In this document: piece after piece, positions 1 to 37,145 of the stretch
Layout of the letters: each line of letters opens with the position of its first letter
Numbering within the stretch: the first letter of the stretch is position 1
Assembly: GCF_054482525.1 (NCBI RefSeq)
Contig: NZ_CM137006.1
Length of the DNA stretch: 64,000 nucleotides
Direction: 5' to 3' (one strand)
Notes under the pieces: model-generated
The model's input: the letters and a program-made list of their open reading frames with translations, nothing else
What the model was told of the DNA's origin: nothing
Databases searched by the model: none
Program-made: the position numbers and the translations under genes

Positions 1-44
1 AACATCTTTGCAATCTTTTTTTGCTTATCTGTTGCGTTTGACAT
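1..44 (-). CDS. orf110 hypothetical protein, 5' 44 nt only (rest lies left of window)
   Basis: Positions 1-44 correspond to 8744-8787 of the complete copy-2 ORF 8455-8787. Confidence 0.4.
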   Translation of the reverse strand, partial: MSNATDKQKKIAKM

Positions 45-67
45 TTTCCCTTTCCCTTCAACTAGAT

Positions 68-364
68 TTAATCATTACATTCAACCGTTGCTACGGTTCC
101 ATAATAAGTAATGTAAAGAAAACTTCCATTATTGAACTGGCCAACAGAGGTCGATACTTTTACCCCGTAAATGACATTTCCTTGTCTACCTGCAGAATTC
201 ACGAACGCATCATAGGCTTCCTGGTGCTCATTTCTCTTGCGCTCCATAAAACCACGAATTAAACCTTTATCAGAAATTTCAATAGGATAGGTCTTCTCAA
301 TAAATCCATGAATCTCTACTACTTTCATATTGGAGGGCAATGTATCAGTGCTTAACACTAACAT
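68..364 (-). CDS. orf98, hypothetical accessory protein (first gene of a minus-strand two-gene cassette)
   Basis: 98-aa ORF with AAGGA Shine-Dalgarno about 8 nt upstream of the ATG; no TM segment or signal peptide apparent; no family recognised by eye. Confidence 0.55.
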   Translation of the reverse strand: MLVLSTDTLPSNMKVVEIHGFIEKTYPIEISDKGLIRGFMERKRNEHQEAYDAFVNSAGRQGNVIYGVKVSTSVGQFNNGSFLYITYYGTVATVECND

Positions 365-471
365 GTTGATTTCCTTTCAATTAAAGAACCTTAATGACAT
401 TACTTAATTATTTCATTTCAATCAACAACATATGGGTTGTTTTTTATCATTCCGACACTATATCTAGGCGA

Positions 472-494
472 GATAACTAAAATGGCTAGTTATC
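472..494. promoter_or_regulatory. Operator-like palindrome GATAACTA-N7-TAGTTATC in the divergent promoter region between orf98 and the 96-aa gene (recurs at +8743 multiples)
   Basis: Perfect 8-bp inverted repeat with 7-bp spacer, flanked by direct CACTATA repeats (456-462, 494-500), about 25 bp upstream of the ATG at 519. Confidence 0.4.
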
Positions 495-518
495 ACTATA
501 CCTCTAAAGGATAAAATA

Positions 519-809
519 ATGGCTGACTTCTACATAACAGCAGTAAAATATGATGAAAATCATGAACATATCGTTAAGGTTAAAACACGGCAACGAGTTG
601 ATGGTAAGGTTAAAGCACCAAGCATCAATTCTCGCCAATTTATCGTCGAATTGATTAATACCGGAAAGGTATCATTTTGGACTGGATTACAGGATAGCGA
701 AGGACGATGGGGAAAAGGGGCTGACGTGACCGTAACCTCTACTGGTTTCCTGACTACATCACCAAATAATACCACTCGGGATAACCTCGGCGAATTGCCT
801 GAATTTTAA
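519..809 (+). CDS. Hypothetical small protein (96 aa), possibly DUF3892-like
   Basis: AAAGG Shine-Dalgarno 8 nt upstream; the DUF3892 assignment rests on a recalled pattern only (N-terminal Y-I-T-x-V, H-x-H-I, C-terminal DNL-x-x-LPE) and needs an HMM search. Confidence 0.5.
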   Translation: MADFYITAVKYDENHEHIVKVKTRQRVDGKVKAPSINSRQFIVELINTGKVSFWTGLQDSEGRWGKGADVTVTSTGFLTTSPNNTTRDNLGELPEF

Positions 810-817
810 CCAAAAAT

Positions 818-850
818 CAAACGTGCAGTGTAGGTAATACTGCACGTTTG
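818..850. terminator. Stem-loop (11-bp stem) between convergent 96-aa gene and HTH gene; likely bidirectional terminator (recurs per copy)
   Basis: CAAACGTGCAG-N11-CTGCACGTTTG; T-run on the minus-strand side (ATTTTTGG). Confidence 0.55.
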
Positions 851-873
851 TCTCATTCCTGAGACTCTACCTT

Positions 874-1320
874 TTACTGTTCATCGCCAGTGATTAATTT
901 TCTGGTTAACATCTTTGCACTGTAGCTATATGAACTTAAAGCAGAAACCTGTCTTGCAAGTGATATGATATCTTGCTTGTCCAATGTCCTGATGTTCCAG
1001 ATAATGAAGTTATGGGCATCAGTGGTTTCTTTGTCAGTGTAACCATCTGCTGAAGTGATCAACTTTCTTTCTGTTGCGTCTTCTTTAACCGCAAGTGCAT
1101 CACCATGAGCCAAGGTGTTTAAATCCGTACCAGTGATTTTTGCGATTTCGATCACATCACTGAACTTAGGTTCTGTTTTAGCAGTCGCTATCCTAACAAG
1201 TGTCCTTACGTTGATGCCGGTTTTGTCTGCGACTTCTTCGTATGTCCCATGCTCCAGGATAGCTTTCCGTATTCTTTCTGCTCGCTTGCTATCAGCCATA
1301 ACATACAACTCTCGATTCAT
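874..1320 (-). CDS. HTH (XRE/Cro-C1-type) transcriptional regulator, candidate prophage repressor
   Basis: 148 aa; helix-turn-helix signature around residues 26-46 (TYEEVADKTGINVRTLVRIA); GGAG Shine-Dalgarno 9 nt upstream; divergent from gII across an operator-rich intergenic region. Confidence 0.7.
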   Translation of the reverse strand: MNRELYVMADSKRAERIRKAILEHGTYEEVADKTGINVRTLVRIATAKTEPKFSDVIEIAKITGTDLNTLAHGDALAVKEDATERKLITSADGYTDKETTDAHNFIIWNIRTLDKQDIISLARQVSALSSYSYSAKMLTRKLITGDEQ

Positions 1321-1364
1321 CTTAGGTGCTCCAGTTTACATCACTCTTTTTAGATGCTTTTTTT

Positions 1365-1442
1365 CATGGACAAATATGTCCTTAAAAACAAGACATCGTA
1401 TTGACAACAGATCTCAACATGCTTAGCATTTATTTGTCCATG
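1365..1442. promoter_or_regulatory. Candidate operator pair in the HTH-gII divergent intergenic region (recurs per copy)
   Basis: 12-mer TATTTGTCCATG at 1431-1442 with its reverse complement at 1365-1377; embedded palindrome GGACA-N4-TGTCC at 1368-1381; a degenerate third copy near 1455-1472. Confidence 0.45.
1401..1429 (+). promoter_or_regulatory. Candidate sigma70 promoter for gII (TTGACA-17 bp-TAGCAT)
   Basis: Consensus -35 hexamer at 1401-1406, 17-bp spacer, -10-like TAGCAT at 1424-1429; operator 12-mer lies at the predicted start region. Confidence 0.35.
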
Positions 1443-1526
1443 ACTGAAAGACACATTTGTCTATTGACATGGTAAATACAGGTAAAAGTCATTTTGATTC
1501 ATGTTTACTTGACTGCTGAGACACTT

Positions 1527-2579
1527 ATGATCGACTGGTTTACCGGAATCCTGCCTTGCACACACCGACCGTTACCGGCCGGTAGCGTCGTCAGCGTTGA
1601 TGCTGATGGTGCGGTGGAGTGGGAAACAGTAAAACGGTTGACCGTTCGCGGTTCGTATGAATCAACGATGAAAGTAAGATCTGTTGGATCTGATGGCGAA
1701 GGTCGGGCAACACATCTTTATATTGATGGGAATCCTTCAAAATTCCTTCAGGGACATTCTGTTATTGGTTCTGATGATTTGCAGGGACTGGTATTAACCG
1801 TATACGCAAGAATACTGGCATTACTTCATATTCCTCATGATCTCCCGTCATATCGTCAGGTAATGTCTGGTCAGTATAAGATTTCCCGTATTGATATTAA
1901 TTATATGTATTCATTGTCAACACTGGAAAATGTCCGTGCATGGTTATATGCCGCAGAATTTAAAGCGAAAACTCGCCATGGTCGCGCCTGTGGTAAAGGT
2001 GGCACTGTTTACTTAGGGAAAAACTCCCGTCGTTGGAGCCTGAAATTTTATTCAAAATATGATGAGCATATATCTGGCAAAAAAGGGCACCAGATGGCAG
2101 ACGAATTCGTTAAAGCAGGTTTACTGGACTGGTCAAAAGATAAATTACGCATTGAATTAACATTAAGAACAACTGAATTAATTGATTTGAATCTTACGCT
2201 TGGTAATAGCTGGAATATTCAGACGCCCAATAAATTATTCTCTGACTATGTAGGGAGAATAGAAATGAATCAAAATACTATATTAACTGATGAAAAAATA
2301 ATTAATCTCCCAAGAAAAATACAGTCTACATATTTATTGTGGAAGCAGGGCGCGAACATGAAAGAGATGTTACCGAAACCTACATTCTACCGACACCGTA
2401 AAGAATTACTTTCTTTCGGAATAGATATTAACTTTTATTGTGAGTCACCGGATTCTAATAACGTTGTTCCGTTGGTTCGTATTCTTGAAGCCAAACCGGC
2501 CAAAATTCCATCATGGTTTTATGAGAAAGGTTTAATTTTCGATCATAACCGTATTTCACATGCCAGTAACTGGTATTAA
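1527..2579 (+). CDS. gII: Rolling-circle replication initiator, gene II protein homologue
   Basis: N-terminus MIDWF and C-terminal block NNVVPLVR align with M13 gIIp as recalled; alternative in-frame ATG at 1494 (ORF-track start). Confidence 0.85.
   Translation: MIDWFTGILPCTHRPLPAGSVVSVDADGAVEWETVKRLTVRGSYESTMKVRSVGSDGEGRATHLYIDGNPSKFLQGHSVIGSDDLQGLVLTVYARILALLHIPHDLPSYRQVMSGQYKISRIDINYMYSLSTLENVRAWLYAAEFKAKTRHGRACGKGGTVYLGKNSRRWSLKFYSKYDEHISGKKGHQMADEFVKAGLLDWSKDKLRIELTLRTTELIDLNLTLGNSWNIQTPNKLFSDYVGRIEMNQNTILTDEKIINLPRKIQSTYLLWKQGANMKEMLPKPTFYRHRKELLSFGIDINFYCESPDSNNVVPLVRILEAKPAKIPSWFYEKGLIFDHNRISHASNWY
2265..2579 (+). CDS. gX: Gene X-like protein, in-frame internal restart within gII
   Basis: Internal ATG preceded by GGGAG (9 nt); MNQNT start aligns with the M13 gX start (EGDSMNIYDD versus GRIEMNQNT). 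Confidence 0.55.
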   Translation: MNQNTILTDEKIINLPRKIQSTYLLWKQGANMKEMLPKPTFYRHRKELLSFGIDINFYCESPDSNNVVPLVRILEAKPAKIPSWFYEKGLIFDHNRISHASNWY

Positions 2580-2590
2580 AGGAGAGTGAT

Positions 2591-2908
2591 ATGTCTAATT
2601 ATGGTCTTTTTGTAAAAGGTAAAATGCTTGGTGCTCGCCAGCGTAATAAGGTCAATGGTCAGGGATACTATAATGAAATTGGTATTGGCTTAGAGATCCC
2701 TGATGGTTTTGGCGGCACTAAGCAAGACCAGATTATTATTCGTGTTTCTCAGGCTCTTGTTAATGCCGGTGTAATGAATCAGGCAAATAATCTTATCGGT
2801 AAGTTAGTCCAGATACCTGTATATGTTCGTGTCTGGTCAATGGAAGGTAGAGAAGGAGTAACTTATAATATTTCATCTGACGGTGGAATCACTGAAATAA
2901 AAGGTTAA
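2591..2908 (+). CDS. gV: Putative ssDNA-binding protein, gene V analogue
   Basis: 105-aa ORF immediately after gII with AAGGAGAG Shine-Dalgarno; Ff-like position; only weak motif resemblance to M13 gVp. Confidence 0.55.
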   Translation: MSNYGLFVKGKMLGARQRNKVNGQGYYNEIGIGLEIPDGFGGTKQDQIIIRVSQALVNAGVMNQANNLIGKLVQIPVYVRVWSMEGREGVTYNISSDGGITEIKG

Positions 2909-2910
2909 AT

Positions 2911-2997
2911 ATGGCTGATGTTATACAAATATTAATAGCGTCAGGCATTGTTATCTCTTTTGGCCTCGGCGCAATTACTGCGGGGGTTTTTCGTTAA
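2911..2997 (+). CDS. gVII: Minor coat protein, gene VII analogue (28 aa)
   Basis: MADVIQILIASGIVISFGLGAITAGVFR; hydrophobic; C-terminal half resembles M13 gVIIp; too short for the ORF track. Confidence 0.5.
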   Translation: MADVIQILIASGIVISFGLGAITAGVFR

Positions 2998-3092
2998 TGT
3001 ATATAGCTTATTTCTTCGGGGCTTATACCTTTGGTTTTGCCCTTTTCTACGCGGTCGGTTCATTTAAATCATTTTCTGACCGATTAATGTAA
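2997..3092 (+). CDS. gIX: Minor coat protein, gene IX analogue (31 aa)
   Basis: MYIAYFFGAYTFGFALFYAVGSFKSFSDRLM; start overlaps the gVII stop by 1 nt (TAATG), as is typical for Ff VII/IX coupling. Confidence 0.45.
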   Translation: MYIAYFFGAYTFGFALFYAVGSFKSFSDRLM

Positions 3093-3116
3093 TGTAACTT
3101 TAATGGAGTTATTTAT

Positions 3117-3359
3117 ATGAAAGTTTTGTCTTTTGTTAAATCTAAAATTGCAGTAGCTTCAACAGCGCTTTTTGTTTCTGCGAGTTCTTTTGCGGCAGCT
3201 GAGTCTACAGGCGGGACTGATTATGCAGGTCAGGCAATGGATGCATTACTGACTCAGGCAAATGATCTTATTGGTAAAGTATGGCCTGTCGTTGTTGCTG
3301 TGGTTGGTGCTGGCCTTGCCATTCGTATTTTTAAAAAATTCGCTTCTAAAGCAGTTTAA
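3117..3359 (+). CDS. gVIII: Major coat protein precursor
   Basis: 80 aa; signal peptide ending SFAAAE, acidic N-terminus, hydrophobic core, basic C-terminus [12 protein letters not shown] (inovirus major-coat signature); GGAG Shine-Dalgarno. Confidence 0.85.
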
Positions 3360-3369
3360 AATTCACTCA

Positions 3370-3392
3370 GGGGCATTTGTTGCCCCTTTATT
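3370..3392 (+). terminator. Rho-independent terminator after the major coat gene (recurs per copy)
   Basis: GGGGCA-tttgt-TGCCCC followed by TTTATT; same position as the strong terminator after gVIII in Ff phages. Confidence 0.65.
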
Positions 3393-3405
3393 AAATTGGG
3401 TTATT

Positions 3406-4650
3406 ATGAAAAGGAAAATATTAATTACTTTCTCTATTTTTATTTCTTCTTTTTCATATGCTGATTCATGGGAAAGCATTACTAAATCTACTTTTCAAAG
3501 CTCTGCATATGCTGAAAGTAAGCAAATAACCAACCAAGATGGTACTAAACAAACTGTTTATTATATTGATGCAACCATGCAGGCTTCTTCCTGTCAGGGA
3601 GCTAAAGACAGTGCTCAGGTTGTTTTTAATCAGGTTAAACCAACTTATGAGGGAATGTGGCCTAACTCTGAATTCCGTCTTGTATTTTCTGACGCTTGTA
3701 CTTACAGCGACTCTCCAGGCCAGAAAGATAAATACTGGACTTTAACTGCTTATATTATAGGTGATATTCAACGATCTATTCCTGATGAAAAACCTTCCGA
3801 GCCTACGCCTGAAGAGATTTGTGAAGCTAAACCCCCCGAAGAAGGTGTATTCAATAATGTCTATTCTTATGACGGTGATCGTTATATTTATTATAACGGT
3901 TGTGAATATGAGGCCACTGGCGTCATTGTTTGCCAGAGTGATAGCACTGTTTGTGCTGCGACATGGAAGCCTACCGGAACTGTAGCCGCACCTTCAGATA
4001 AGCCTTCTTCTCCTGTTGGCGATGGCGGTGATACTGGAGGCGGGGATACGGGTGATGGTGATACCGGTGGAGGTGATACAGGCGGTGGTAACCCAAGTGG
4101 CAGTTCTGGCGGTGGTAATGGCTCAAGTATCACCAAAGGAGATATTCAGTCAGCTATCGAAGGTGCTTCACCTAAAATTGCCAGTGAGATTCATGATAAG
4201 TTAACAGAAAAAGATACCTCATCTGATGATAAAAAGTCGGCTGATGAACAGACTAAAAATAATATAAATCGTCTTGTTGACTCTATAAATAACCTTACTC
4301 GCGGAGCCGGACGTTTTGCTGATCCTTCTGGCGGCGATTCCCGTTATGGGGAGGGGGGGTCTGAATTAGATAGCGCTTCCACTTTAGCTGAATCTGAATT
4401 AGGAATTGCAAAGGATTCTCATGGTGCGTTATGGGAGGCTTTCTTAAATAAAGGTGCTATGTTGCCCAATTTACCTAATGGTAATGGTTGTTCTGATTTT
4501 ATTATTTTCCCCGGAGAGGTTTATCAGATCGATATTGGCTGCGATAAATTACTGACTATTAAAAATGCTCTTTCATGGGTTTTTTATTGCCTTACGTTCT
4601 GGTATGTATTTACTTCTTTAACTTCATTGCTTCGTAAAGGTGGTGAGTGA
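3406..4650 (+). CDS. gIII: Minor coat / adsorption protein pIII
   Basis: Signal peptide [19 protein letters not shown], Cys-containing N-terminal domains, Gly/Asp-rich linker repeats, C-terminal membrane anchor; ORF-track ORF 3262-4650 trimmed to the first in-frame ATG after the gVIII terminator. Confidence 0.8.
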
Positions 4651-4991
4651 TGCCTTTATTATTAGGTATTCCTGCATTGTTGCGTTTTCTTATTGGTCTT
4701 GTTCCTTTACTTATTGGCTATGCGGCAAGTTTTTTAGCTCGGCTTGCAACCAAAACAGGTTTAATAGCGGTTGCATTGGTTGCGCTAATTACAACAACTG
4801 TTACGCTTTTAATGCAGTACCTTGCTGAGGTCATGTATATCGGGTTACCCGCTGATTTTTCACATCTAATGGCGTCTGTACTGCCTGACCATTTTCAGGC
4901 GTGTGTTAACGTTATTATGGTTACTCGTATCAGTGTTTTTGTTTTCGATTTAAAACAAAAATTTCTTGATTATGCAAACAGGGTGATTTAA
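4647..4991 (+). CDS. gVI: Minor coat protein pVI
   Basis: 114 aa, hydrophobic; [15 protein letters not shown] aligns with M13 pVI MPVLLGIPLLLRFL. Confidence 0.8.
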
Positions 4992-6086
4992 ATGGCGGTT
5001 CATGTAGTAACAGGCAAATTAGGCTCAGGCAAGACACTGGTTAGTGTTTCCAGAATACAGGAAAGACTGGCTAAGGGTTGTCCTGTTGCCACTAATCTTG
5101 ATCTTAAATTGCATAATATGCCTATGGTTGGGCGTTATGCTAAAAAAACGCGCGTTATTCGTGTTCCTGATAAGCCTTCATTAAATGATTTACTGGCTAT
5201 TGGTATTGGAAATACATCTTACGATGAATCCCGCAATGGCCTTTTAGTGCTTGATGAATGTGGTACTTGGTTTAATTCCCGTTCATGGGGTGATAAAGAC
5301 AGACAACCTGTTATTGACTGGTTTTTACATGCCCGTAAATTAGGTTGGGATATTATTTTTTTGATTCAGGATATTTCGATAATGGATAAGCAAGCTCGTC
5401 TGGCACTTGCTGAACATGTTGTTTATTGTCGCCGTTCAGATAAATTAAACATTCCTTTTATTGGCTCTATTATAAATTTAGTTTCAGGAGCGCGATTTTC
5501 TTTACCAAAGGTACACTTTGGTATTGTTAAATATGGTGATAACGTTAATTCAATTACTGTTGATAAATGGATATACACCGGAAAATCATTATATTCCGCC
5601 TACAATACAAAACAGGTTTTTACTGATAACTATCCGCATGGTGCTTATTCTCTTTTACCGCCATTTATTACACATGGCCAGTTTTCTGTTCACAAAGGAC
5701 TTAATTATTATATGCGCCTCACGAAAATTTATTTCCGAAAATCAAACCGATTAATATTAATGCTTTCATTTTTTGCCTTTGGGCTTGGGCTTGGCTTCTG
5801 GCTACAATCTGGTAAGAATGCCGATGAAATTTCGGCTATTAAATCAGTTCATGCTGAACAGGTGAGGGCGGTAACACCTGACAGTACCAGCGATTTACCG
5901 AGACTTTCTATTGATTCTTTCTCTCAGCTTGGTTTTGATGTTTCTGTTACGTTTGTTGACGCTAAGGGTATGAAGTACCAGTATTTTGATTTAATTAAAG
6001 ATGGTTATTCCGTTGATATTAAAGATGCCTGCCGAATTGTTATCAGAAAAGGCCATTATTTACAAAGCGTCACCTGTCAGGAGTAA
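4992..6086 (+). CDS. gI: Assembly ATPase pI (Zot-like)
   Basis: 364 aa; Walker A GKLGSGKT; extensive similarity to M13 pI along the length as recalled. Confidence 0.9.
   Translation: MAVHVVTGKLGSGKTLVSVSRIQERLAKGCPVATNLDLKLHNMPMVGRYAKKTRVIRVPDKPSLNDLLAIGIGNTSYDESRNGLLVLDECGTWFNSRSWGDKDRQPVIDWFLHARKLGWDIIFLIQDISIMDKQARLALAEHVVYCRRSDKLNIPFIGSIINLVSGARFSLPKVHFGIVKYGDNVNSITVDKWIYTGKSLYSAYNTKQVFTDNYPHGAYSLLPPFITHGQFSVHKGLNYYMRLTKIYFRKSNRLILMLSFFAFGLGLGFWLQSGKNADEISAIKSVHAEQVRAVTPDSTSDLPRLSIDSFSQLGFDVSVTFVDAKGMKYQYFDLIKDGYSVDIKDACRIVIRKGHYLQSVTCQE
5712..6086 (+). CDS. gXI: pXI-like protein, in-frame internal restart within gI
   Basis: Internal Met at codon 241 (MRLTKIYFRK), the same codon position as M13 pXI (MKLTKIYLKK). 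Confidence 0.5.
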   Translation: MRLTKIYFRKSNRLILMLSFFAFGLGLGFWLQSGKNADEISAIKSVHAEQVRAVTPDSTSDLPRLSIDSFSQLGFDVSVTFVDAKGMKYQYFDLIKDGYSVDIKDACRIVIRKGHYLQSVTCQE

Positions 6087-6093
6087 TATTACT

Positions 6094-7359
6094 ATGCGTT
6101 TATTTTGCATTGCCATCTTATTCATTTATTCTTTTTGTGTTTCTGCTGAAACTGTTAATCTTAATAATTCATCCGTTCGTTCATTTGTCCAGTGGTATTC
6201 ATCAAAAACTGGTAAGCCTGTTATTGTTAACCCCGATGTTAAAGGCTCCGTAACAGTATTTAATGCTGATGTTAATCCCACAAATATTGATGACTTTTTC
6301 AAATCTGTTCTGAATGCTAATGGATTTGTCATGCTTTCTGGTAATCCTGCGGTAGTATCTTTGCCGTCAAAATTACCGTCACAGATGGCATCAGACCCTG
6401 ATGATTCCGATAATCAGTCTTATGACTCTTTTCCGCCAGAGCCATCCTGTCAGCCAGCGCCTGTGGCGCTCACTGTCAGAAATTTTAAGCTGACAAAAGT
6501 ACGAGCGTCTGATGTTCAGCAACTGGTTAAAATTTATCTGGATTCGAATGGCGGGGGTAATGTCGTGGATTATCCCGGCAATAACTCCCTGATTGTATCT
6601 GCGCCTGACGAGCTACTGCCTGTTCTGTCCAATTTCATTAACTCAGTTGATGTTGCCCGTGATCAGGTACTCATTCAATCGCTCATGTTTGAAACCAGTT
6701 TGTCTGATGGTGTTGATTTGTCATTTGCAGCTGGCTCTGCATCCGGCCATAAGGTGGCGGGGGGTTTTAATACTTCTGCGCTGGGTAATGCTCTTTCTAC
6801 GGTGGGCGGCTCTTTTGGTATTTTTGATGGTAACGTGTTGGCGCTGTCTCTGCGTGCTGTCCAGAGTAATTCACGCTCTAAGGTGATTTCAACACCGCGC
6901 ATTCTTACTCAGTCCGGTCAGACTGGTTATATTTCCGTAGGTAAGAATGTGCCGTTTATCACAGGAAAGGTAACGGGTGAATCTGCTGGGGTAAATAATC
7001 CGTTTCAGACTATCGAACGTCATGATGTTGGCGTTTCTCTCAAGGTAACGCCTGTTGTCATGGGGAACGGGCAATTAGTTTTGACCATCGATACCCGCGC
7101 CGATTCAATCAGCAATGATGACCAAGCATCTGATATTATTACTAATCAGCGCCAGATTCAGACCACTGTTCAGATTAAGGATGGCCAGACTCTCTTACTT
7201 GGTGGGTTGATTGATTCATCATCCAGCAATGCTGACCGTTCTGTACCATTTATCAGCAAAATTCCGGTAATTGGCTGGCTTTTCAGGAGTAAAGCTGACA
7301 GTAATGAGCAACGCATTATGTATGTCCTGCTGACTGCTCATATTATTCGTGCGCTTTGA
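6094..7359 (+). CDS. gIV: Secretin pIV (outer-membrane export channel)
   Basis: 421 aa from the ATG with AGGAG Shine-Dalgarno; signal peptide MRLFCIAILFIYSFCVSA; secretin motifs conserved with M13 pIV (e.g. GQNVPFITG-like, VPFISKIPVIG). Confidence 0.9.
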   Translation: MRLFCIAILFIYSFCVSAETVNLNNSSVRSFVQWYSSKTGKPVIVNPDVKGSVTVFNADVNPTNIDDFFKSVLNANGFVMLSGNPAVVSLPSKLPSQMASDPDDSDNQSYDSFPPEPSCQPAPVALTVRNFKLTKVRASDVQQLVKIYLDSNGGGNVVDYPGNNSLIVSAPDELLPVLSNFINSVDVARDQVLIQSLMFETSLSDGVDLSFAAGSASGHKVAGGFNTSALGNALSTVGGSFGIFDGNVLALSLRAVQSNSRSKVISTPRILTQSGQTGYISVGKNVPFITGKVTGESAGVNNPFQTIERHDVGVSLKVTPVVMGNGQLVLTIDTRADSISNDDQASDIITNQRQIQTTVQIKDGQTLLLGGLIDSSSSNADRSVPFISKIPVIGWLFRSKADSNEQRIMYVLLTAHIIRAL

Positions 7360-7402
7360 TGGGGCCGTGGCGGGTGCGTTAAGCCCCGGTATGGCCCCAT
7401 CA
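7357..7402 (+). terminator. Compound hairpin immediately after the secretin gene stop (recurs per copy)
   Basis: TGATGGGGCC ... GGCCCCATCA 10-bp inverted repeat enclosing a GC-rich inner region; start of the phage intergenic region. Confidence 0.4.
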
Positions 7403-7799
7403 AGAGCCAGATTTTACGTCTCACCACGGAGCCTCTATATGGCCTTAAAACTGACAGGATATGAACAGAAAAACATCTTCTAGGTGATTCAATTACTTAG
7501 AGGTTTTTATGTCTGTAAAAAGTAGGGGCGCGATCGACTTCCTGGTGGTCGCCTGAAGTCTTACCGTCGTGTTGGTTCACATTTTACCAGTTGTTCCAAG
7601 TGGTTTGATAAATCACCGTCCTGGTATCGCAATATGATGATGACCCGGCCAGAGCGCCGTGAAGTCAGAAAGCTTCTCAATCAGGTTGTACGTGGCCGTG
7701 ACGCTGACGGCATCGCATTTCCGGTCAGCAACAAGCCATTTGCATGGCGGTGGTGAACATTTTTAGCCGCTAAAACTTCATGCTGACGGAATTATCGAA

Positions 7800-7844
7800 A
7801 ACCCCGTACAGCAACAAAACTTGTTTTTGTTGCTGTACGGGGTT
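7800..7844. other. Perfect 20-bp-stem hairpin (5-nt loop) in the intergenic region: candidate packaging signal and/or minus-strand terminator for orf81 (recurs per copy)
   Basis: AAACCCCGTACAGCAACAAAA-cttgt-TTTTGTTGCTGTACGGGGTT; TTTTC follows on the minus strand. Confidence 0.5.
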
Positions 7845-7906
7845 GGCCAAGCCGCAACAGTACTCTATTTTTCTTTGGAGTTAATTGCGGCGCGGCTAGG
7901 GATGTA

Positions 7907-8152
7907 TCAGACTTTAATCTTAACTACTTTTTCAGTGCCGGTCATAAAACTAACCAGCTTCTTGCGGCCATCGGGATACTCTTTAATGACACATCCTTCT
8001 GGCGTATTTTTTTCAGCGTAATAAATAGGGACGCCACTAAGAAGACAGGCTCGGGCTGCTTCACCGACATCATGTTCTAGTTGCTGCTCGAAAACAGTCA
8101 AGAACTCTGCTTCCTCTGATGGTGTCATTTCAGCTAAATATGATAAGTCCAT
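7907..8152 (-). CDS. orf81, hypothetical accessory protein
   Basis: 81-aa ORF between the intergenic hairpin region and the att site; the 20-bp-stem hairpin at 7800-7844 is followed by a T-run on the minus strand and could terminate it. Confidence 0.45.
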   Translation of the reverse strand: MDLSYLAEMTPSEEAEFLTVFEQQLEHDVGEAARACLLSGVPIYYAEKNTPEGCVIKEYPDGRKKLVSFMTGTEKVVKIKV

Positions 8153-8354
8153 AAATGCTCATGCCTTCTGTAATTCATTGCTTAGTAACAATGATGAACA
8201 GGCCTGATTGGTGAGGTCAGGCTGTTCACTTACTGCTGACAGACATTTGATTCTGATTCGTTTGGAGAAACGGATGATTTTGAATCATTGTCGATAGTAA
8301 CCAGTTGACGGCCAGTGTCAACGATCCCCGCCAGATTCTGCCATCCTTACCATT

Positions 8355-8387
8355 GGTGCGCATAATGTGCTACACGTTATGTTGAAA
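8355..8387 (+). other. Phage att (dif-like) site at copy junction: XerC arm GGTGCGCATAA, 11-bp spacer TGTGCTACACG, XerD-like arm TTATGTTGAAA
   Basis: Perfect match to the XerC-binding arm of E. coli dif; best XerD-like arm (9 of 11) is displaced 5 bp relative to dif geometry. Confidence 0.8.
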
Positions 8388-8420
8388 AGGCCGCTGCGAA
8401 AATAGAACCCCGCAGCGGCC
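8385..8420 (-). terminator. Rho-independent terminator for the minus-strand orf98-orf110 cassette, abutting the att site (recurs per copy)
   Basis: GGCCGCTGCG-N12-CGCAGCGGCC with a T-run on the minus strand (8385-8388). Confidence 0.55.
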
Positions 8421-8454
8421 TCTTTAGCATAACGTCATTGTGCGAACCAATTAT

Positions 8455-8787
8455 TTATTTTTTTGATTTTTGAGTTGCCTCAATTTCTTTTTTTAAACCA
8501 TGAAGGTTTTTATGACCGGTTCCCTTTGGTTGTAACTGTCCCCTTTGTAACTTACTGATTCTATTTCCTCTTTCTGATATTACTATTTCATCATTCAGGG
8601 ATTTTTCAATCAATGCATACAACGCATTGAATACTTTGATGTTTTCTGATTCCCTCAACTCTTCGAGGATTTTACTTAGTTGTAGAAAGTCATTAATTAA
8701 ACTAACGCCATTTTTAGGATCGTAAAACTCCTCATGTCGTTTTAACATCTTTGCAATCTTTTTTTGCTTATCTGTTGCGTTTGACAT
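8455..8787 (-). CDS. orf110, hypothetical accessory protein (second gene of the minus-strand cassette)
   Basis: 110 aa, charged, basic C-terminal tail, no TM segment; 23-bp gap after orf98; followed by a hairpin plus T-run terminator at 8385-8420. Confidence 0.55.
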   Translation of the reverse strand: MSNATDKQKKIAKMLKRHEEFYDPKNGVSLINDFLQLSKILEELRESENIKVFNALYALIEKSLNDEIVISERGNRISKLQRGQLQPKGTGHKNLHGLKKEIEATQKSKK

Positions 8788-8810
8788 TTTCCCTTTCCCT
8801 TCAACTAGAT

Positions 8811-9107
8811 TTAATCATTACATTCAACCGTTGCTACGGTTCCATAATAAGTAATGTAAAGAAAACTTCCATTATTGAACTGGCCAACAGAGGTCGATAC
8901 TTTTACCCCGTAAATGACATTTCCTTGTCTACCTGCAGAATTCACGAACGCATCATAGGCTTCCTGGTGCTCATTTCTCTTGCGCTCCATAAAACCACGA
9001 ATTAAACCTTTATCAGAAATTTCAATAGGATAGGTCTTCTCAATAAATCCATGAATCTCTACTACTTTCATATTGGAGGGCAATGTATCAGTGCTTAACA
9101 CTAACAT
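8811..9107 (-). CDS. orf98 hypothetical accessory protein (copy 2)
   Basis: Repeat of 68-364 at +8743; identical translation. Confidence 0.55.
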   Translation of the reverse strand: MLVLSTDTLPSNMKVVEIHGFIEKTYPIEISDKGLIRGFMERKRNEHQEAYDAFVNSAGRQGNVIYGVKVSTSVGQFNNGSFLYITYYGTVATVECND

Positions 9108-9261
9108 GTTGATTTCCTTTCAATTAAAGAACCTTAATGACATTACTTAATTATTTCATTTCAATCAACAACATATGGGTTGTTTTTTATCATTCCGACA
9201 CTATATCTAGGCGAGATAACTAAAATGGCTAGTTATCACTATACCTCTAAAGGATAAAATA

Positions 9262-9552
9262 ATGGCTGACTTCTACATAACAGCAGTAAAATATGATGAA
9301 AATCATGAACATATCGTTAAGGTTAAAACACGGCAACGAGTTGATGGTAAGGTTAAAGCACCAAGCATCAATTCTCGCCAATTTATCGTCGAATTGATTA
9401 ATACCGGAAAGGTATCATTTTGGACTGGATTACAGGATAGCGAAGGACGATGGGGAAAAGGGGCTGACGTGACCGTAACCTCTACTGGTTTCCTGACTAC
9501 ATCACCAAATAATACCACTCGGGATAACCTCGGCGAATTGCCTGAATTTTAA
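9262..9552 (+). CDS. Hypothetical small protein (96 aa), possibly DUF3892-like (copy 2)
   Basis: Repeat of 519-809 at +8743. Confidence 0.5.
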   Translation: MADFYITAVKYDENHEHIVKVKTRQRVDGKVKAPSINSRQFIVELINTGKVSFWTGLQDSEGRWGKGADVTVTSTGFLTTSPNNTTRDNLGELPEF

Positions 9553-9616
9553 CCAAAAATCAAACGTGCAGTGTAGGTAATACTGCACGTTTGTCTCATT
9601 CCTGAGACTCTACCTT

Positions 9617-10063
9617 TTACTGTTCATCGCCAGTGATTAATTTTCTGGTTAACATCTTTGCACTGTAGCTATATGAACTTAAAGCAGAAACCTGTCTTGC
9701 AAGTGATATGATATCTTGCTTGTCCAATGTCCTGATGTTCCAGATAATGAAGTTATGGGCATCAGTGGTTTCTTTGTCAGTGTAACCATCTGCTGAAGTG
9801 ATCAACTTTCTTTCTGTTGCGTCTTCTTTAACCGCAAGTGCATCACCATGAGCCAAGGTGTTTAAATCCGTACCAGTGATTTTTGCGATTTCGATCACAT
9901 CACTGAACTTAGGTTCTGTTTTAGCAGTCGCTATCCTAACAAGTGTCCTTACGTTGATGCCGGTTTTGTCTGCGACTTCTTCGTATGTCCCATGCTCCAG
10001 GATAGCTTTCCGTATTCTTTCTGCTCGCTTGCTATCAGCCATAACATACAACTCTCGATTCAT
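9617..10063 (-). CDS. HTH regulator, candidate repressor (copy 2)
   Basis: Repeat of 874-1320 at +8743. Confidence 0.7.
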   Translation of the reverse strand: MNRELYVMADSKRAERIRKAILEHGTYEEVADKTGINVRTLVRIATAKTEPKFSDVIEIAKITGTDLNTLAHGDALAVKEDATERKLITSADGYTDKETTDAHNFIIWNIRTLDKQDIISLARQVSALSSYSYSAKMLTRKLITGDEQ

Positions 10064-10269
10064 CTTAGGTGCTCCAGTTTACATCACTCTTTTTAGATGC
10101 TTTTTTTCATGGACAAATATGTCCTTAAAAACAAGACATCGTATTGACAACAGATCTCAACATGCTTAGCATTTATTTGTCCATGACTGAAAGACACATT
10201 TGTCTATTGACATGGTAAATACAGGTAAAAGTCATTTTGATTCATGTTTACTTGACTGCTGAGACACTT

Positions 10270-11322
10270 ATGATCGACTGGTTTACCGGAATCCTGCCTT
10301 GCACACACCGACCGTTACCGGCCGGTAGCGTCGTCAGCGTTGATGCTGATGGTGCGGTGGAGTGGGAAACAGTAAAACGGTTGACCGTTCGCGGTTCGTA
10401 TGAATCAACGATGAAAGTAAGATCTGTTGGATCTGATGGCGAAGGTCGGGCAACACATCTTTATATTGATGGGAATCCTTCAAAATTCCTTCAGGGACAT
10501 TCTGTTATTGGTTCTGATGATTTGCAGGGACTGGTATTAACCGTATACGCAAGAATACTGGCATTACTTCATATTCCTCATGATCTCCCGTCATATCGTC
10601 AGGTAATGTCTGGTCAGTATAAGATTTCCCGTATTGATATTAATTATATGTATTCATTGTCAACACTGGAAAATGTCCGTGCATGGTTATATGCCGCAGA
10701 ATTTAAAGCGAAAACTCGCCATGGTCGCGCCTGTGGTAAAGGTGGCACTGTTTACTTAGGGAAAAACTCCCGTCGTTGGAGCCTGAAATTTTATTCAAAA
10801 TATGATGAGCATATATCTGGCAAAAAAGGGCACCAGATGGCAGACGAATTCGTTAAAGCAGGTTTACTGGACTGGTCAAAAGATAAATTACGCATTGAAT
10901 TAACATTAAGAACAACTGAATTAATTGATTTGAATCTTACGCTTGGTAATAGCTGGAATATTCAGACGCCCAATAAATTATTCTCTGACTATGTAGGGAG
11001 AATAGAAATGAATCAAAATACTATATTAACTGATGAAAAAATAATTAATCTCCCAAGAAAAATACAGTCTACATATTTATTGTGGAAGCAGGGCGCGAAC
11101 ATGAAAGAGATGTTACCGAAACCTACATTCTACCGACACCGTAAAGAATTACTTTCTTTCGGAATAGATATTAACTTTTATTGTGAGTCACCGGATTCTA
11201 ATAACGTTGTTCCGTTGGTTCGTATTCTTGAAGCCAAACCGGCCAAAATTCCATCATGGTTTTATGAGAAAGGTTTAATTTTCGATCATAACCGTATTTC
11301 ACATGCCAGTAACTGGTATTAA
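10270..11322 (+). CDS. gII: Replication initiator gII homologue (copy 2)
   Basis: Repeat of 1527-2579 at +8743; nested gX-like restart at 11008. Confidence 0.85.
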   Translation: MIDWFTGILPCTHRPLPAGSVVSVDADGAVEWETVKRLTVRGSYESTMKVRSVGSDGEGRATHLYIDGNPSKFLQGHSVIGSDDLQGLVLTVYARILALLHIPHDLPSYRQVMSGQYKISRIDINYMYSLSTLENVRAWLYAAEFKAKTRHGRACGKGGTVYLGKNSRRWSLKFYSKYDEHISGKKGHQMADEFVKAGLLDWSKDKLRIELTLRTTELIDLNLTLGNSWNIQTPNKLFSDYVGRIEMNQNTILTDEKIINLPRKIQSTYLLWKQGANMKEMLPKPTFYRHRKELLSFGIDINFYCESPDSNNVVPLVRILEAKPAKIPSWFYEKGLIFDHNRISHASNWY

Positions 11323-34583: not shown

Positions 34584-34611
34584 GGTGCGCATAATGTATA
34601 TTATGTTAAAT
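34584..34611 (+). other. dif: Chromosomal dif site (XerC arm, 6-bp central region, XerD arm)
   Basis: Exact 28-mer GGTGCGCATAATGTATATTATGTTAAAT, the canonical E. coli dif as recalled; phage sequence ends within or next to the central region. Confidence 0.93.
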
Positions 34612-34779
34612 GGAATTTGAGTGATGCGAAGCGATTTTCCAGTCGTCGTTATTACTTCAGGGTTCCAGAACATAAAGCCTCTCCTCTTTCATGATTGGCC
34701 TGTGCATACCGGATATAGGCTGGCAGGTTTGCCGTTTGCCGCATCTTCCCTGCGTTGAAGAGTCAGGCTGGCAAACTGC

Positions 34780-35034
34780 GTGCAAATGAACACCCCCTCT
34801 TTCTATCAACACTTCAGACAGCTTGCGGGAATGAGTTCACTCCGGTATCAGAAATGGCTACGCCTCAATGAAGCCAGGCGACTGATGCTGAATGAACATT
34901 ACGATGTCACCACTGCAGCCTATGCTGTCGGTTACGAAAGCTTATCCCATTTCAGTCGGGAATATTCGCGGATATTTGGAGAGTCACCTAAGAGAGATAT
35001 TACTAAATTAAGAAAGCCTCTTGGTCAGCTTTAA
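34780..35034 (+). pseudogene. yneL: AraC-family HTH C-terminal fragment (yneL-like remnant)
   Basis: 84-aa ORF matching only the C-terminal HTH-containing part of AraC/XylS regulators; position next to dif matches the K-12 yneL pseudogene as recalled. Confidence 0.55.
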
Positions 35035-35467
35035 TAAACCCTGCACTTATCTGGTTAGAGCATTTCGGCATTAGTTTCACTATGCAAACATTAACCATAG
35101 CTAATGATTTATAGCCATATAAACCATTAGTCGCTCTTGACTTTTCCTGACACTTCCCTTGTTCGCAATAATATTCTGTTTAGTCGCTGTTTATAAATAT
35201 CATGCATAATGAAATCGTCATGTTATTTAGCGACATAAAATGTCTTTGCAAATACTCTCTACAACAAGTGCTGCAATAAACTTGTTGTGATTAGGTGTCC
35301 TTGTAATTTAAAGATATTATCGTTCTTCGTGAAATGTAATAACCCTGGAAACTATATTCTCAGGGCAACAACCAATTAAGAATGATTCTTGTTTTATAAG
35401 CAATAACAGAATGACTTAATTGTTAACTCTCTTTATTCAGCTACTTAAATATAAATTTTGGAGAATT

Positions 35468-36031
35468 ATGAAACTCAAACATGTCGGTATGATTGTCGTT
35501 TCTGTGTTGGCGATGTCGTCTGCTGCGGTAAGCGCAGCCGAGGGTGATGAATCAGTAACGACCACTGTTAATGGCGGTGTTATTCATTTTAAAGGTGAAG
35601 TGGTAAATGCCGCTTGTGCGATTGATTCAGAATCAATGAACCAAACGGTTGAGCTGGGTCAGGTTCGTTCTTCTCGCCTGGCAAAAGCGGGTGACCTCAG
35701 CTCTGCCGTTGGCTTCAATATCAAGCTGAATGATTGTGATACCAATGTTTCCAGTAATGCAGCTGTTGCATTCCTGGGTACTACTGTCACCAGTAATGAC
35801 GATACCTTAGCGCTGCAGAGTTCAGCGGCAGGCTCTGCCCAAAATGTCGGTATTCAAATTTTGGACCGTACGGGGGAGGTATTAATACTTGATGGTGCCA
35901 CTTTTAGCGCTAAAACCGACTTGATTGATGGCACGAATATACTGCCATTCCAGGCTCGTTATATTGCTCTCGGGCAGTCAGTAGCTGGTACTGCAAACGC
36001 TGATGCGACCTTCAAAGTTCAATATCTATAA
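35468..36031 (+). CDS. Fimbrial major subunit (FimA-like), F9-type chaperone-usher operon
   Basis: 187 aa from the ATG with GGAG Shine-Dalgarno; signal peptide ending AVSAAEG; type 1 fimbrial subunit features (Cys pair, C-terminal beta-strand ending FKVQYL). Confidence 0.85.
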
Positions 36032-36384
36032 TTCAATCTTAAGATGGCTATACGTCATCTGAAATTGAAACAGGGTGTGTGTTGCATGGCTACGCACACC
36101 CGAGCAATTCACCAATGTTCATCTCATTATTAATGAGGAATAGTTTGTGTTTTGGAGCGGTATGAAAAAATCACATAATATCTAAACGATCAATAAACAA
36201 CAGTAGTTAAACTTACTGTTATTTAAAATATTTACTTTGTAGCAAGGTTTTCCTATTAAAAGAGAACCAACATTTATTACAAACGCATTAAGTCTGGAAA
36301 CCCGGCGAGTCGCCAATGTATTAGCAACATTTACCGATTGTCTGATGTAACGGTTTCCCCGCTTATCCTCTTAACACATGGAGA

Positions 36385-37104
36385 ATGCATCAGATGCAAA
36401 CTACGCGTACCCCCTACTCTATTTCCTTTATGGCGACAGTGTTACTTTTATTGCTCTTTGCTTGCCATAGCACCGTTGCCAACGCAGCTGTCGCACTGGG
36501 TGCGACGCGGGTAATTTATCCGGCAAACCAGAAACAGGTTTTATTGCCTGTCACGAATAATGATCCTGCCAGTGTCTATCTCATTCAGTCATGGATAGAA
36601 AATGCAGGTGACCAAAAAGACACCCAGTTTGTCATTACGCCACCGCTTTTTTCCATGCAAGGTAAAAAAGAGAATACGCTGCGGATAATCAACGCCACTA
36701 ATCATCAGTTACCAGGCGACCGTGAAAGCCTGTTCTGGGTTAATGTCAAAGCTATTCCTGCTATGGAAAAAGACCAGAAGAATGAGAATACATTACAGCT
36801 GGCAATTATTAGCCGCATAAAAATGTTTTATCGCCCCACGAACCTGGCAATGGCACCTGAAGAAGCGCCTGCAATGCTTCGGTTTCGTCGCAGCGGTAGC
36901 AAACTTACTCTTATTAATCCAACGCCCTACTTCATTACCGTAACAAATATGAAAGCAGGAAATAGCAATCTCCCAAATACCATGGTGCCGCCAAAAGGTG
37001 ATGTATCGGTGGATATCCCGCATGCTGCAACCGGGGATATCAGTTTTCAGACGATCAATGATTACGGTGCATTAACTCCGCGTATTAAGGCAACCATGCA
37101 GTAA
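36385..37104 (+). CDS. Periplasmic fimbrial chaperone (PapD/FimC-like)
   Basis: 239-aa ORF with signal peptide and chaperone N-domain motifs; start may be a downstream in-frame ATG (36394 or 36430). Confidence 0.8.
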   Translation: MHQMQTTRTPYSISFMATVLLLLLFACHSTVANAAVALGATRVIYPANQKQVLLPVTNNDPASVYLIQSWIENAGDQKDTQFVITPPLFSMQGKKENTLRIINATNHQLPGDRESLFWVNVKAIPAMEKDQKNENTLQLAIISRIKMFYRPTNLAMAPEEAPAMLRFRRSGSKLTLINPTPYFITVTNMKAGNSNLPNTMVPPKGDVSVDIPHAATGDISFQTINDYGALTPRIKATMQ

Positions 37105-37145
37105 ACCAGTGACCTAATTAATAATAAACTCAATCGGAATTAATA

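Follow-up and report, generated by a model that had tools for sequence, protein, structure and literature searches.

An orphan relative of a zeta-kinase partner gene in the cargo slot of a filamentous Escherichia coli prophage

Accessory genes beside the attachment (att) site of filamentous phages that integrate at dif include cholera toxin. Here we analyze a gene in such a position, orf81, in a 64,000-nucleotide (nt) stretch of DNA (contig NZ_CM137006.1 of RefSeq assembly GCF_054482525.1), referred to as the window. The window belongs to an Escherichia coli chromosome, its flank at 34600-38600 being 100% identical to strains such as PCN033, and includes at least four head-to-tail copies of an 8743-bp filamentous prophage integrated at dif; this number is a lower bound since the leftmost copy crosses the left edge of the window, and the true number may be higher. 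A self-comparison of the window shows zero mismatches across 1-34597 at a period of 8743, and a perfect host dif, GGTGCGCATAATGTATATTATGTTAAAT, closes the array at 34584-34611. The units are organized like a filamentous phage genome, their plus strand encoding gene II, gene V, coat proteins, attachment protein, Zot-like pI and secretin. orf81 lies at 7907-8152 on the minus strand, between gene IV and the phage attachment site, attP. A first-pass annotation made from the letters alone had described it as a gene without recognizable family, which would form a separate accessory transcription unit together with a promoter and operator region of about 200 bp (8153-8354) in front of it.

The 81-amino-acid (aa) open reading frame (ORF), which starts with ATG, was confirmed by ORF call and translation. 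Its apparent lack of a family holds true for Pfam, NCBIfam and PADLOC, in which no family was found, but not beyond them. orf81 matches PHROG 21003, a phage family of unknown function, over its full length (E = 4.2e-55, residues 1-81 on profile positions 1-81 of 81), and a library of 1.84e9 representative proteins contains homologues in 170 clusters at E <= 1e-3 (50%-identity clusters). The family consists of proteins of about 85 aa with the consensus DDGxAARxHLAAGxPIYYxExDTPxGxVIKEYPDGRRELVxF, and its conserved core is G-x-P-I-Y-Y...T-P-x-G-x-V-I-K-E-Y-P-D-G-R-x-E-L-V-x-F. By the Nei-Gojobori method, comparison with a plasmid homologue gives a ratio of nonsynonymous to synonymous substitution rates (dN/dS) of 0.09; the values are 0.18-0.22 for homologues on chromosomal islands and 0.27 for the allele of a CUS/Ypf-type prophage (L015). 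The poor conservation and non-coding substitution pattern that the first-pass annotation had named as signs of a spurious gene are thus not found, and its proposal of a real accessory gene is borne out by a substitution record that points to purifying selection.

An AlphaFold2 model of the protein, computed from a 73-sequence alignment, has a predicted local distance difference test score (pLDDT) of 90.6 and shows two helices, after which the chain forms a four-stranded meander sheet. No similar fold was found in the PDB or among predicted viral structures. The homology and structure searches that had been suggested for orf81 hence yielded a broad family and a predicted fold without known match. 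A profile search of the PDB matched nothing but the G-box beta-hairpin repeats of CPAP with their 'fPDGrkE' motif; homology was rejected here, and we take the resemblance as a common short hairpin motif. A weak Pfam match to L51_S25_CI-B8 (E = 0.04) was dismissed as chance.

What accompanies orf81 elsewhere? Its homologues normally lie upstream of a short zeta-toxin kinase. On IncP-1-like conjugative plasmids (approximately 41 kb, with TrfA, KorA/IncC/KorB and Trb/Tra genes), a homologue with 79% protein identity (WP_000061334) is located between kleE and korA and is overlapped by one base by the gene of a 196-aa protein (WP_019842075) that passes Pfam Zeta_toxin (37.6 bits at a cut-off of 22.3, locus L010). 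Dozens of such plasmids occur in Escherichia, Salmonella, Klebsiella and Shigella. The same gene pair is present in unrelated metagenome loci (L003-5, L016, L017/18 and L019/20) as well as in Salmonella diarizonae, three Azospirillum genomes, Anaerobiospirillum and a Campylobacterota genome, the genome search having used a 12-sequence alignment and one genome per species. Partner kinases were scored by a match to Pfam Zeta_toxin and/or AAA_33, or by a Walker A motif. The partner gene usually encodes a Zeta_toxin/AAA_33 P-loop kinase of about 195 aa, whose start codon overlaps the stop codon of the small gene, by 1-4 nt in most cases; gaps of 3 nt and 11 nt are found in L016 and L059, respectively. 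These kinases form one orthologous family with 44-86% identity, which has GPNGAGKST, ETTLTG and GGHxVP motifs in common. At least 11 other lineages have homologues linked to the kinase, on plasmids and in Alpha-, Gamma- and Epsilonproteobacteria. A literature search found no characterization of this zeta pair on IncP-like plasmids.

The phage copy stands alone. The 8743-bp phage unit lacks a kinase gene, the hairpins at 7800-7896 following orf81 instead. For this reason we call orf81 an orphan homologue, and we place it in the family and among its orphans with high confidence from these sequence comparisons. Further orphans were identified in Brenneria, in Acidocella and on an integrative element at guaA, where the gene adjoins an EexN entry-exclusion gene, RepA and TraJ. 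In a census of 5426 complete E. coli genomes, 103 carry a family gene: 16 are of the phage type (at least 95% identity), 30 are on plasmids and approximately 57 are orphans of the guaA element. Among the plasmid copies, 29 of 30 have a complete kinase gene, and the remaining one keeps only a 50-nt fragment of it. The kinase gene itself occurs in 30 of the 5426 genomes, every time on plasmids. In complete E. coli genomes, copies without the toxin, which reside on two further types of mobile element, therefore exceed complete pairs in number, which is the pattern expected if the antitoxin is used for anti-addiction or counter-defense.

In type II toxin-antitoxin operons that place the antitoxin first, such as epsilon/zeta and PezAT, the hallmark is translational coupling of a zeta-family kinase to a small gene in front of it. 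Since the gene order of the orf81 relatives and their overlap with the kinase resemble these operons, we read the family as putative antitoxins and assign such a function to orf81, by analogy, with moderate confidence. As in epsilon/zeta and PezA/PezT, the small gene lies upstream of, and overlaps, the gene of a Zeta_toxin (PF06414) kinase; like epsilon, the orf81-family protein has no DNA-binding domain; and the plasmid copy is situated in a stable-inheritance region. There are also differences. The kinase of the orf81 family is short (about 195 aa) and scores as AAA_33 as well, unlike that of epsilon/zeta and PezAT, and in the window the toxin is absent altogether. While epsilon and PezA are helical bundles, the modeled orf81 combines a helix-helix unit with a beta-sheet and has no similarity to them in sequence or predicted fold; no homology was found between orf81 and the known zeta antitoxins, that is, epsilon (PF08998) or the PezA C-terminal domain. 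The gonococcal IncP1 zeta/epsilon was considered as the same pair and rejected, its toxins being long (about 400 aa).

Orphan antitoxins carried by phages that counter toxin-antitoxin defense are documented for DarTG1, against which orphan DarG-like proteins act (PMC11257639). The situation is similar, with a phage that carries the antitoxin-like half only and a complete system on other replicons. In contrast to the DarTG1 case, the carrier is a temperate, non-lytic filamentous prophage, and the zeta-like pair, which has no match in PADLOC, is not known to act against phages.

How much of the locus belongs to the gene, and how much to the phage? The limits of the orf81 cassette were obtained by BLAST and alignment against two CUS-1-like prophages (L012 and L013) and three viral contigs (L036, L037 and L039). 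These and others have in common with the window the segments 7797-7871, 7888-7896 (CGGCGCGGC) and 8193-8368 (96-98%), and between them carry different sequence, often with a plus-strand ORF. When the window is compared with the orf81 copies of plasmids and islands, homology extends over 7900/7906-8153/8176 only. Because the flanks are common to prophages with other cargo and the plasmid and island homology is confined to the gene, we place the insert at approximately 7897-8192 on the minus strand. This cassette comprises the gene with about 11 nt downstream and 40 nt upstream and is the only part that is replaced in prophages with other cargo. The att-proximal segment at 8193-8354, in contrast, is 96-98% conserved whatever the cargo. 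The proposal that 8153-8354 is a promoter and operator region belonging to orf81 thus does not hold, as 8193-8368 is 96-98% identical in prophages with other, oppositely oriented cargo; judged by these alignments, the features listed within 8193-8354 belong to an att-proximal backbone. Two relatives have less of it: L038 shares only 8226-8368, and the UPphi901-type L014 lacks 8193-8328 and shares only 8329-8452 of the region.

The position of orf81 has parallels among inoviruses that integrate at dif, in which ctxAB (CTXphi), YPO2280a/YPO2281 (YpfPhi/CUS-1) and h1/h2 (UPphi) are att-proximal accessory genes (PMC4266046, PMC7307601). Like these, orf81 is located between the secretion gene and attR and varies among otherwise related phages, and the prophage is likewise a tandem array at dif with CTX-like inverted Xer sites. 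An identity of orf81 with UPphi h1/h2 (Shapiro & Putonti 2020) was rejected: the UPphi host ECONIH2 matches the unit only to the end of gene IV, and the slot of the UPphi-type L014, which has only 7797-7872 and 8329-8452 in common with the window, contains plus-strand ORFs of 102 aa and 77 aa. orf81 is probably also distinct from YPO2281, as no Yersinia loci are among its relatives in the search with one genome per species. The CUS-1-like L012 and L013 carry a different plus-strand ORF in the slot; the CUS/Ypf-type variant L015 does carry orf81. In L012, the slot (2631-2828, equivalent to 7897-8192) holds a 65-aa plus-strand ORF, MTHQELKVMLLKDPAFRAAYEA...YQIIRHHGDGTEEVVF, whose C-terminal hairpin motif loosely recalls the motif of the orf81 family (VIKEYPDGRKELVSF). 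A 45-aa minus-strand ORF at 8226-8363, which starts in the XerC arm of att and is open in five variants, was rejected as a gene because nonsynonymous differences exceed synonymous ones (pN 0.080 against pS 0.018, window compared with L029) and it is frameshifted in L001.

Downstream of orf81 the first-pass annotation had placed a hairpin with a 20-bp stem. It is present on the plus strand as a perfect hairpin at 7800-7819/7825-7844 (5-nt loop, 62 nt past the orf81 stop on the minus strand), but it is an element of the backbone and not the gene's own terminator. A second conserved plus-strand hairpin, GCCGCAA...TTGCGGC with the invariant CGGCGCGGC, extends to about 7896, and both are conserved in UPphi-type and CUS/Ypf-type prophages. 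Across nine variants with and without orf81, the 20-bp stem shows four compensatory pairs and 95.6% paired cells, a result matched by 0 of 500 shuffles. All wobble cells of the stem (12 of 12) are G.T on the plus strand and A.C mismatches on the minus strand, and the minus-strand T-run that follows the hairpin is not conserved. Because wobble pairs work only on the plus strand, the hairpin is under selection there, as virion DNA or plus-sense RNA. The hairpin may also stop transcription of orf81 in this phage, which would not be the reason it exists. We regard the hairpins at 7800-7896 as candidates for a complementary-strand origin or another signal of single-stranded DNA (ssDNA).

Upstream of orf81, a predicted sigma70-like promoter at 8321-8294 on the minus strand consists of a -35 box TTGACA (8321-8316), a 16-nt spacer and a -10 box TACTAT (8299-8294). 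The promoter scan gave 10 of 12 consensus matches for this site, which is oriented toward orf81, is the best of its neighborhood in that orientation, lies 33 nt inside the att boundary and predicts a leader of about 135 nt. An upstream promoter had been expected, and a correctly oriented match does exist, although in the backbone rather than in a unit of orf81. Since the cassette has no room for a promoter of its own, this site is the most likely source of orf81 mRNA as far as the sequence allows such a prediction. Its hexamers are unchanged in all variants except for a 1-nt deletion in L001, the variation being too low for a test of conservation.

The same backbone segment contains three repeats. 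The imperfect inverted repeat at 8195-8228, formed by TGAACAGGCCTGA (8195-8207) and TCAGGCTGTTCA (8217-8228), has 12 pairs and one bulged G, just as first described. As minus-strand RNA it reaches a dG of -18.9 kcal/mol (z = -4.4, 0 of 200 shuffles as good), and a hairpin would be expected from it in the predicted leader of orf81 or in virion ssDNA. L012-type variants have a T-to-C change that moves the bulge and keeps the 12 pairs, and in L015 the loop has a 9-nt insertion. The palindrome ATGATT-ttg-AATCAT also exists, though at 8274-8288 and not at about 8266-8280 as originally given, which is approximately +1 to +14 of the predicted promoter; there is one exact copy per phage unit, and its last base changes from T to C in L012-type variants. 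A third repeat, GTTGAC-N7-GTCAAC at 8304-8322, was absent from the first-pass annotation and overlaps the -35 box. One of its arms is mismatched in L015, and a relative with two mismatches at 10143-10161 overlaps the -35 box of a promoter-like site of gene II. For perfect 6-bp palindromes with loops of 3-7 nt, the two present compare with approximately 0.2 expected per 200 nt by our own estimate. As ssDNA, 8153-8354 folds moderately better than its shuffles (z = -2.8, 0 of 200), and a search of 7300-10300 against Rfam identified no known RNA family, all hits being to eukaryotic or unrelated families and below threshold.

Do these repeats act as operators? The intergenic region between the repressor gene and gene II contains (G/A)GACA-N4-TGTC(C/T) palindromes, namely GGACAAATATGTCC at 10110-10123 and AGACACATTTGTCT at 10192-10205 together with a related half-site, which flank promoter-like sites. 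Judged by motif and placement, they are probably operators of the 148-aa helix-turn-helix (HTH) repressor. The motif was not found upstream of orf81 (8153-8354), and the description of this segment as an operator region finds no evidence in its favor.

The att site follows directly, as had been noted, with the XerC arm GGTGCGCATAA at 8355-8365. By its sequence and the predicted fold of the packaged strand, attP at 8352-8451 on the plus strand is of the CTX type: two inverted dif-like sites form a forked hairpin of approximately 100 nt (dG -34, z = -8.6), which, unlike the moderate fold of 8153-8354, is exceptional, and dif is regenerated on one side. Its parts are the XerC arm, an 11-nt central region, the XerD arm (8377-8387), a GC stem-loop (8389-8420) and the inverted XerD-like (8422-8432) and XerC-like (8438-8448) arms. 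A CTXphi-type attP is also described in a review of YpfPhi (PMC4266046). Since a phage copy and the terminal dif are identical only as far as 8368/34597, we place strand exchange at 8366-8369, next to the XerC arm. The suggestion that the integration state could influence the expression of orf81 gains no support from the promoter itself, all of which is on the phage side of the crossover; only the DNA upstream of it changes: three leftward genes and the att hairpin precede it on the minus strand in the tandem and circular forms, and host DNA does so in the last copy. Readthrough from a neighboring copy, which had also been proposed, fares better in part. The three leftward genes on the same strand make it geometrically possible, but the minus-strand RNA of att forms a GC-rich hairpin apex followed by UUUU (dG -31.5), a terminator-like structure that would limit it. 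Readthrough into orf81 is possible, though probably of limited extent.

What would an orphan of this family do in a filamentous phage? In the explanation that we favor, orf81 would be an accessory ('moron') gene held as a tight cassette of about 300 bp in the variable cargo slot between gene IV and attP. Its transcription would start at the sigma70-like promoter at 8321-8294 in the backbone, pass through the leader of about 135 nt with the 8195-8228 hairpin and end at the backbone hairpins at 7800-7896. The protein would bind the zeta-like kinase and neutralize it in trans, the kinase being known in E. coli only from the IncP-1-like conjugative plasmids of about 41 kb. Neutralization would protect the lysogen, or the chronic infection by the phage, from activation of the toxin, be it by post-segregational killing or by an abortive-infection-type defense. 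We infer antitoxin activity, action in trans and promoter use from the family, its linkage and the position of the cassette; an action against plasmid toxins in particular is speculative. As a whole, including the use of the cassette and of the promoter, we hold the orphan antitoxin to be the best explanation, with somewhat better than even prospects.

Several points weigh against it. The antitoxin role of the family is assigned by guilt by association, PADLOC does not include the family, and no zeta-type kinase was found within the prophage unit. Orphans make up about half of the sampled lineages, and the family may therefore have a role independent of a toxin. With 79% protein identity between the phage copy and the antitoxin-like protein of the plasmids, cross-neutralization is not guaranteed. 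Furthermore, the promoter scan gave 9 sites where 7.4 are expected by chance, and the promoter is equally conserved in phages with oppositely oriented cargo.

The orphan antitoxin could be extended to a broader scenario, in which orf81 founds an unrecognized antitoxin family, absent from Pfam and with a new fold, that is cognate to short zeta-like kinases, and in which filamentous phages and the guaA element have each captured the antitoxin alone, for anti-addiction or anti-defense use against IncP-1-like conjugative plasmids. We put this forward tentatively, as a scenario more doubtful than probable.

Could the conserved surroundings instead serve the DNA itself? The segment 8193-8354, with or without the hairpins at 7800-7896, might be a cis-acting ssDNA element, either a complementary-strand origin or a Xer accessory sequence, and orf81 would then be expressed by readthrough or from a weak fortuitous promoter. 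The 96-98% conservation over at least five cargo types speaks for such an element, as do the three hairpin-forming repeats on the packaged plus strand and the neighboring 20-bp hairpin, which demonstrably acts on that strand. The -35-like TTGAC is part of a hairpin stem, an arrangement shared with the minus-strand origin of Ff phages, at which RNA polymerase primes on the folded virion DNA. In addition, the (+) origin (9563-9601) and the morphogenetic signal (7312-7386) map elsewhere by similarity to I2-2, which leaves the minus-strand origin without an assigned site. Against this, the UPphi901-type L014, whose attP is nearly identical and whose gene II belongs to the same family, dispenses with 8193-8328, L038 is missing the left arm of the 8195-8228 inverted repeat, the folding z-score of -2.8 is modest, and there is too little sequence variation for a covariation test. 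On balance, we consider this element unlikely to be the explanation.

Another view retains the gene pair and assigns the small protein a different role, as a cofactor, substrate adaptor or regulator of the kinase, or supposes that the orphans acquired an unrelated function. orf81 has no similarity to known antitoxin folds, its C-terminal half resembles protein-binding beta-hairpin repeats (G-box/TCP10-like 'fPDGrkE'), and in E. coli orphans outnumber pairs. Nevertheless, gene order, size and start/stop overlap fit type II operons in every paired lineage, the plasmid pair is found in the stable-inheritance region (kle/korA-incC-korB), and the orphans reside on rival mobile elements as expected of anti-addiction genes, which makes this view distinctly improbable.

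Finally, the model of the first-pass annotation, in which orf81 and 8153-8354 form a self-contained unit whose repeats are operators of a phage regulator, whose expression reports the integration state and whose protein affects lysogeny or virion yield, can point to a promoter-like site in the right orientation, to a palindrome at the predicted start site (8274-8288) and to one over the -35 box (8304-8322) with a relative over the -35 box of the gene II promoter (10143-10161), but is very unlikely given that 8193-8354 is backbone common to phages without orf81, that the probable repressor operators (10064-10236 intergenic region) have a different motif that is absent here, that the palindrome arms are not strictly conserved, that strand exchange at 8366-8369 keeps the promoter intact in every integration state and that relatives of orf81 are mostly non-phage, which argues against a role in the phage life cycle.

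The phage that hosts orf81 is itself of mixed descent. Its core has approximately 66% DNA identity to the Lineavirus phages I2-2 and IKe in a search of the INPHARED phage collection, where PEar phages also match the core. Through gene IV (query 1-7751), it has approximately 86% identity to the UPphi prophage of ECONIH2, an E. coli strain named as a UPphi host (PMC7307601). The module after gene IV has other relatives, with 91.5% in common with the CUS-1/YpfPhi-type prophage L015 and 99% with the UPphi-like prophage L001. Because this segment and the core differ in their relatives, sequence comparison describes the phage as a mosaic of a UPphi/I2-2/IKe-like core and an exchangeable accessory module that holds orf81. 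An identity of the whole phage with CUS-1/YpfPhi was dropped, as the core is UPphi-like and only the accessory module is common with the CUS/Ypf type. The INPHARED collection contains no match to 7500-9000 (megablast) or to orf81 (tblastn).

Further observations concern the remainder of the unit. An 82-aa plus-strand ORF after gene IV (7509-7556 and its copies at +8743; MSVK..RLPGGRLKSYRRVGSHF..) is intact in L001, L012 and L015; in all copies of the window a 1-nt deletion near 7526 shifts the frame, with a stop after 15 codons, which means a pseudogene or, alternatively, an assembly error copied across the array. An alignment to the annotated morphogenetic signal of I2-2 (2260-2330) with 76% identity covers the last part of gene IV and what follows it (7312-7386), and the packaging signal is probably located there rather than at the 20-bp hairpin. 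A perfect 12-bp hairpin at 9561-9601, CAAACGTGCAGT...ACTGCACGTTTG, has 92.5% identity over 40 nt to the intergenic region of I2-2 (2667-2706) and is probably the (+) strand origin used by gene II. As this putative origin lies 1.2 kb to the right of attP, a complete genome would be rolled off from tandem copies only.

Three genes per unit are leftward, on the minus strand: 8455-8787 (110 aa), 8811-9107 (98 aa) and 9617-10063, the last encoding the HTH repressor. The two att-proximal ones have no family in Pfam, PHROG or NCBIfam, a weak YbjQ_2 match of the 98-aa protein being the only match of the pair, and other prophages carry different genes at their positions, including a PD-(D/E)XK nuclease, a DUF6953 protein and a membrane protein. 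Hundreds of E. coli records (for example L060 and L061) contain a sequence with approximately 90% identity to the right half of the attP hairpin (8378-8449), beside hipA/dif or on large F-like plasmids and followed by leftward cargo genes, for instance for a SIR2-family protein or an STM4504/CBY_0614 protein. By their arrangement, these recurrences look like the left ends of decayed Xer-integrated elements with defense-like cargo.

Orphan antitoxins in phages and accessory genes beside att are known kinds of finding. What is new is that the partner of a widespread and uncharacterized zeta-kinase pair occurs as a minimal inovirus cassette, in a cargo slot bounded by conserved cis elements, the hairpins at 7800-7896 and the segment at 8193-8354. 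orf81 thereby gains a testable hypothesis of its function, as the toxin-less half of a pair that is limited, in complete E. coli genomes, to one group of conjugative plasmids. IKe and I2-2, the closest relatives of the phage, enter cells via the pili of conjugative plasmids. In the broader scenario of capture against such plasmids, the phage would carry an antidote to the toxin of a replicon type that may supply its receptor. If confirmed, orf81 would represent a new antitoxin family and fold, and a non-lytic phage with an orphan antitoxin would be one party in a three-way conflict of phage, plasmid and integrative element.

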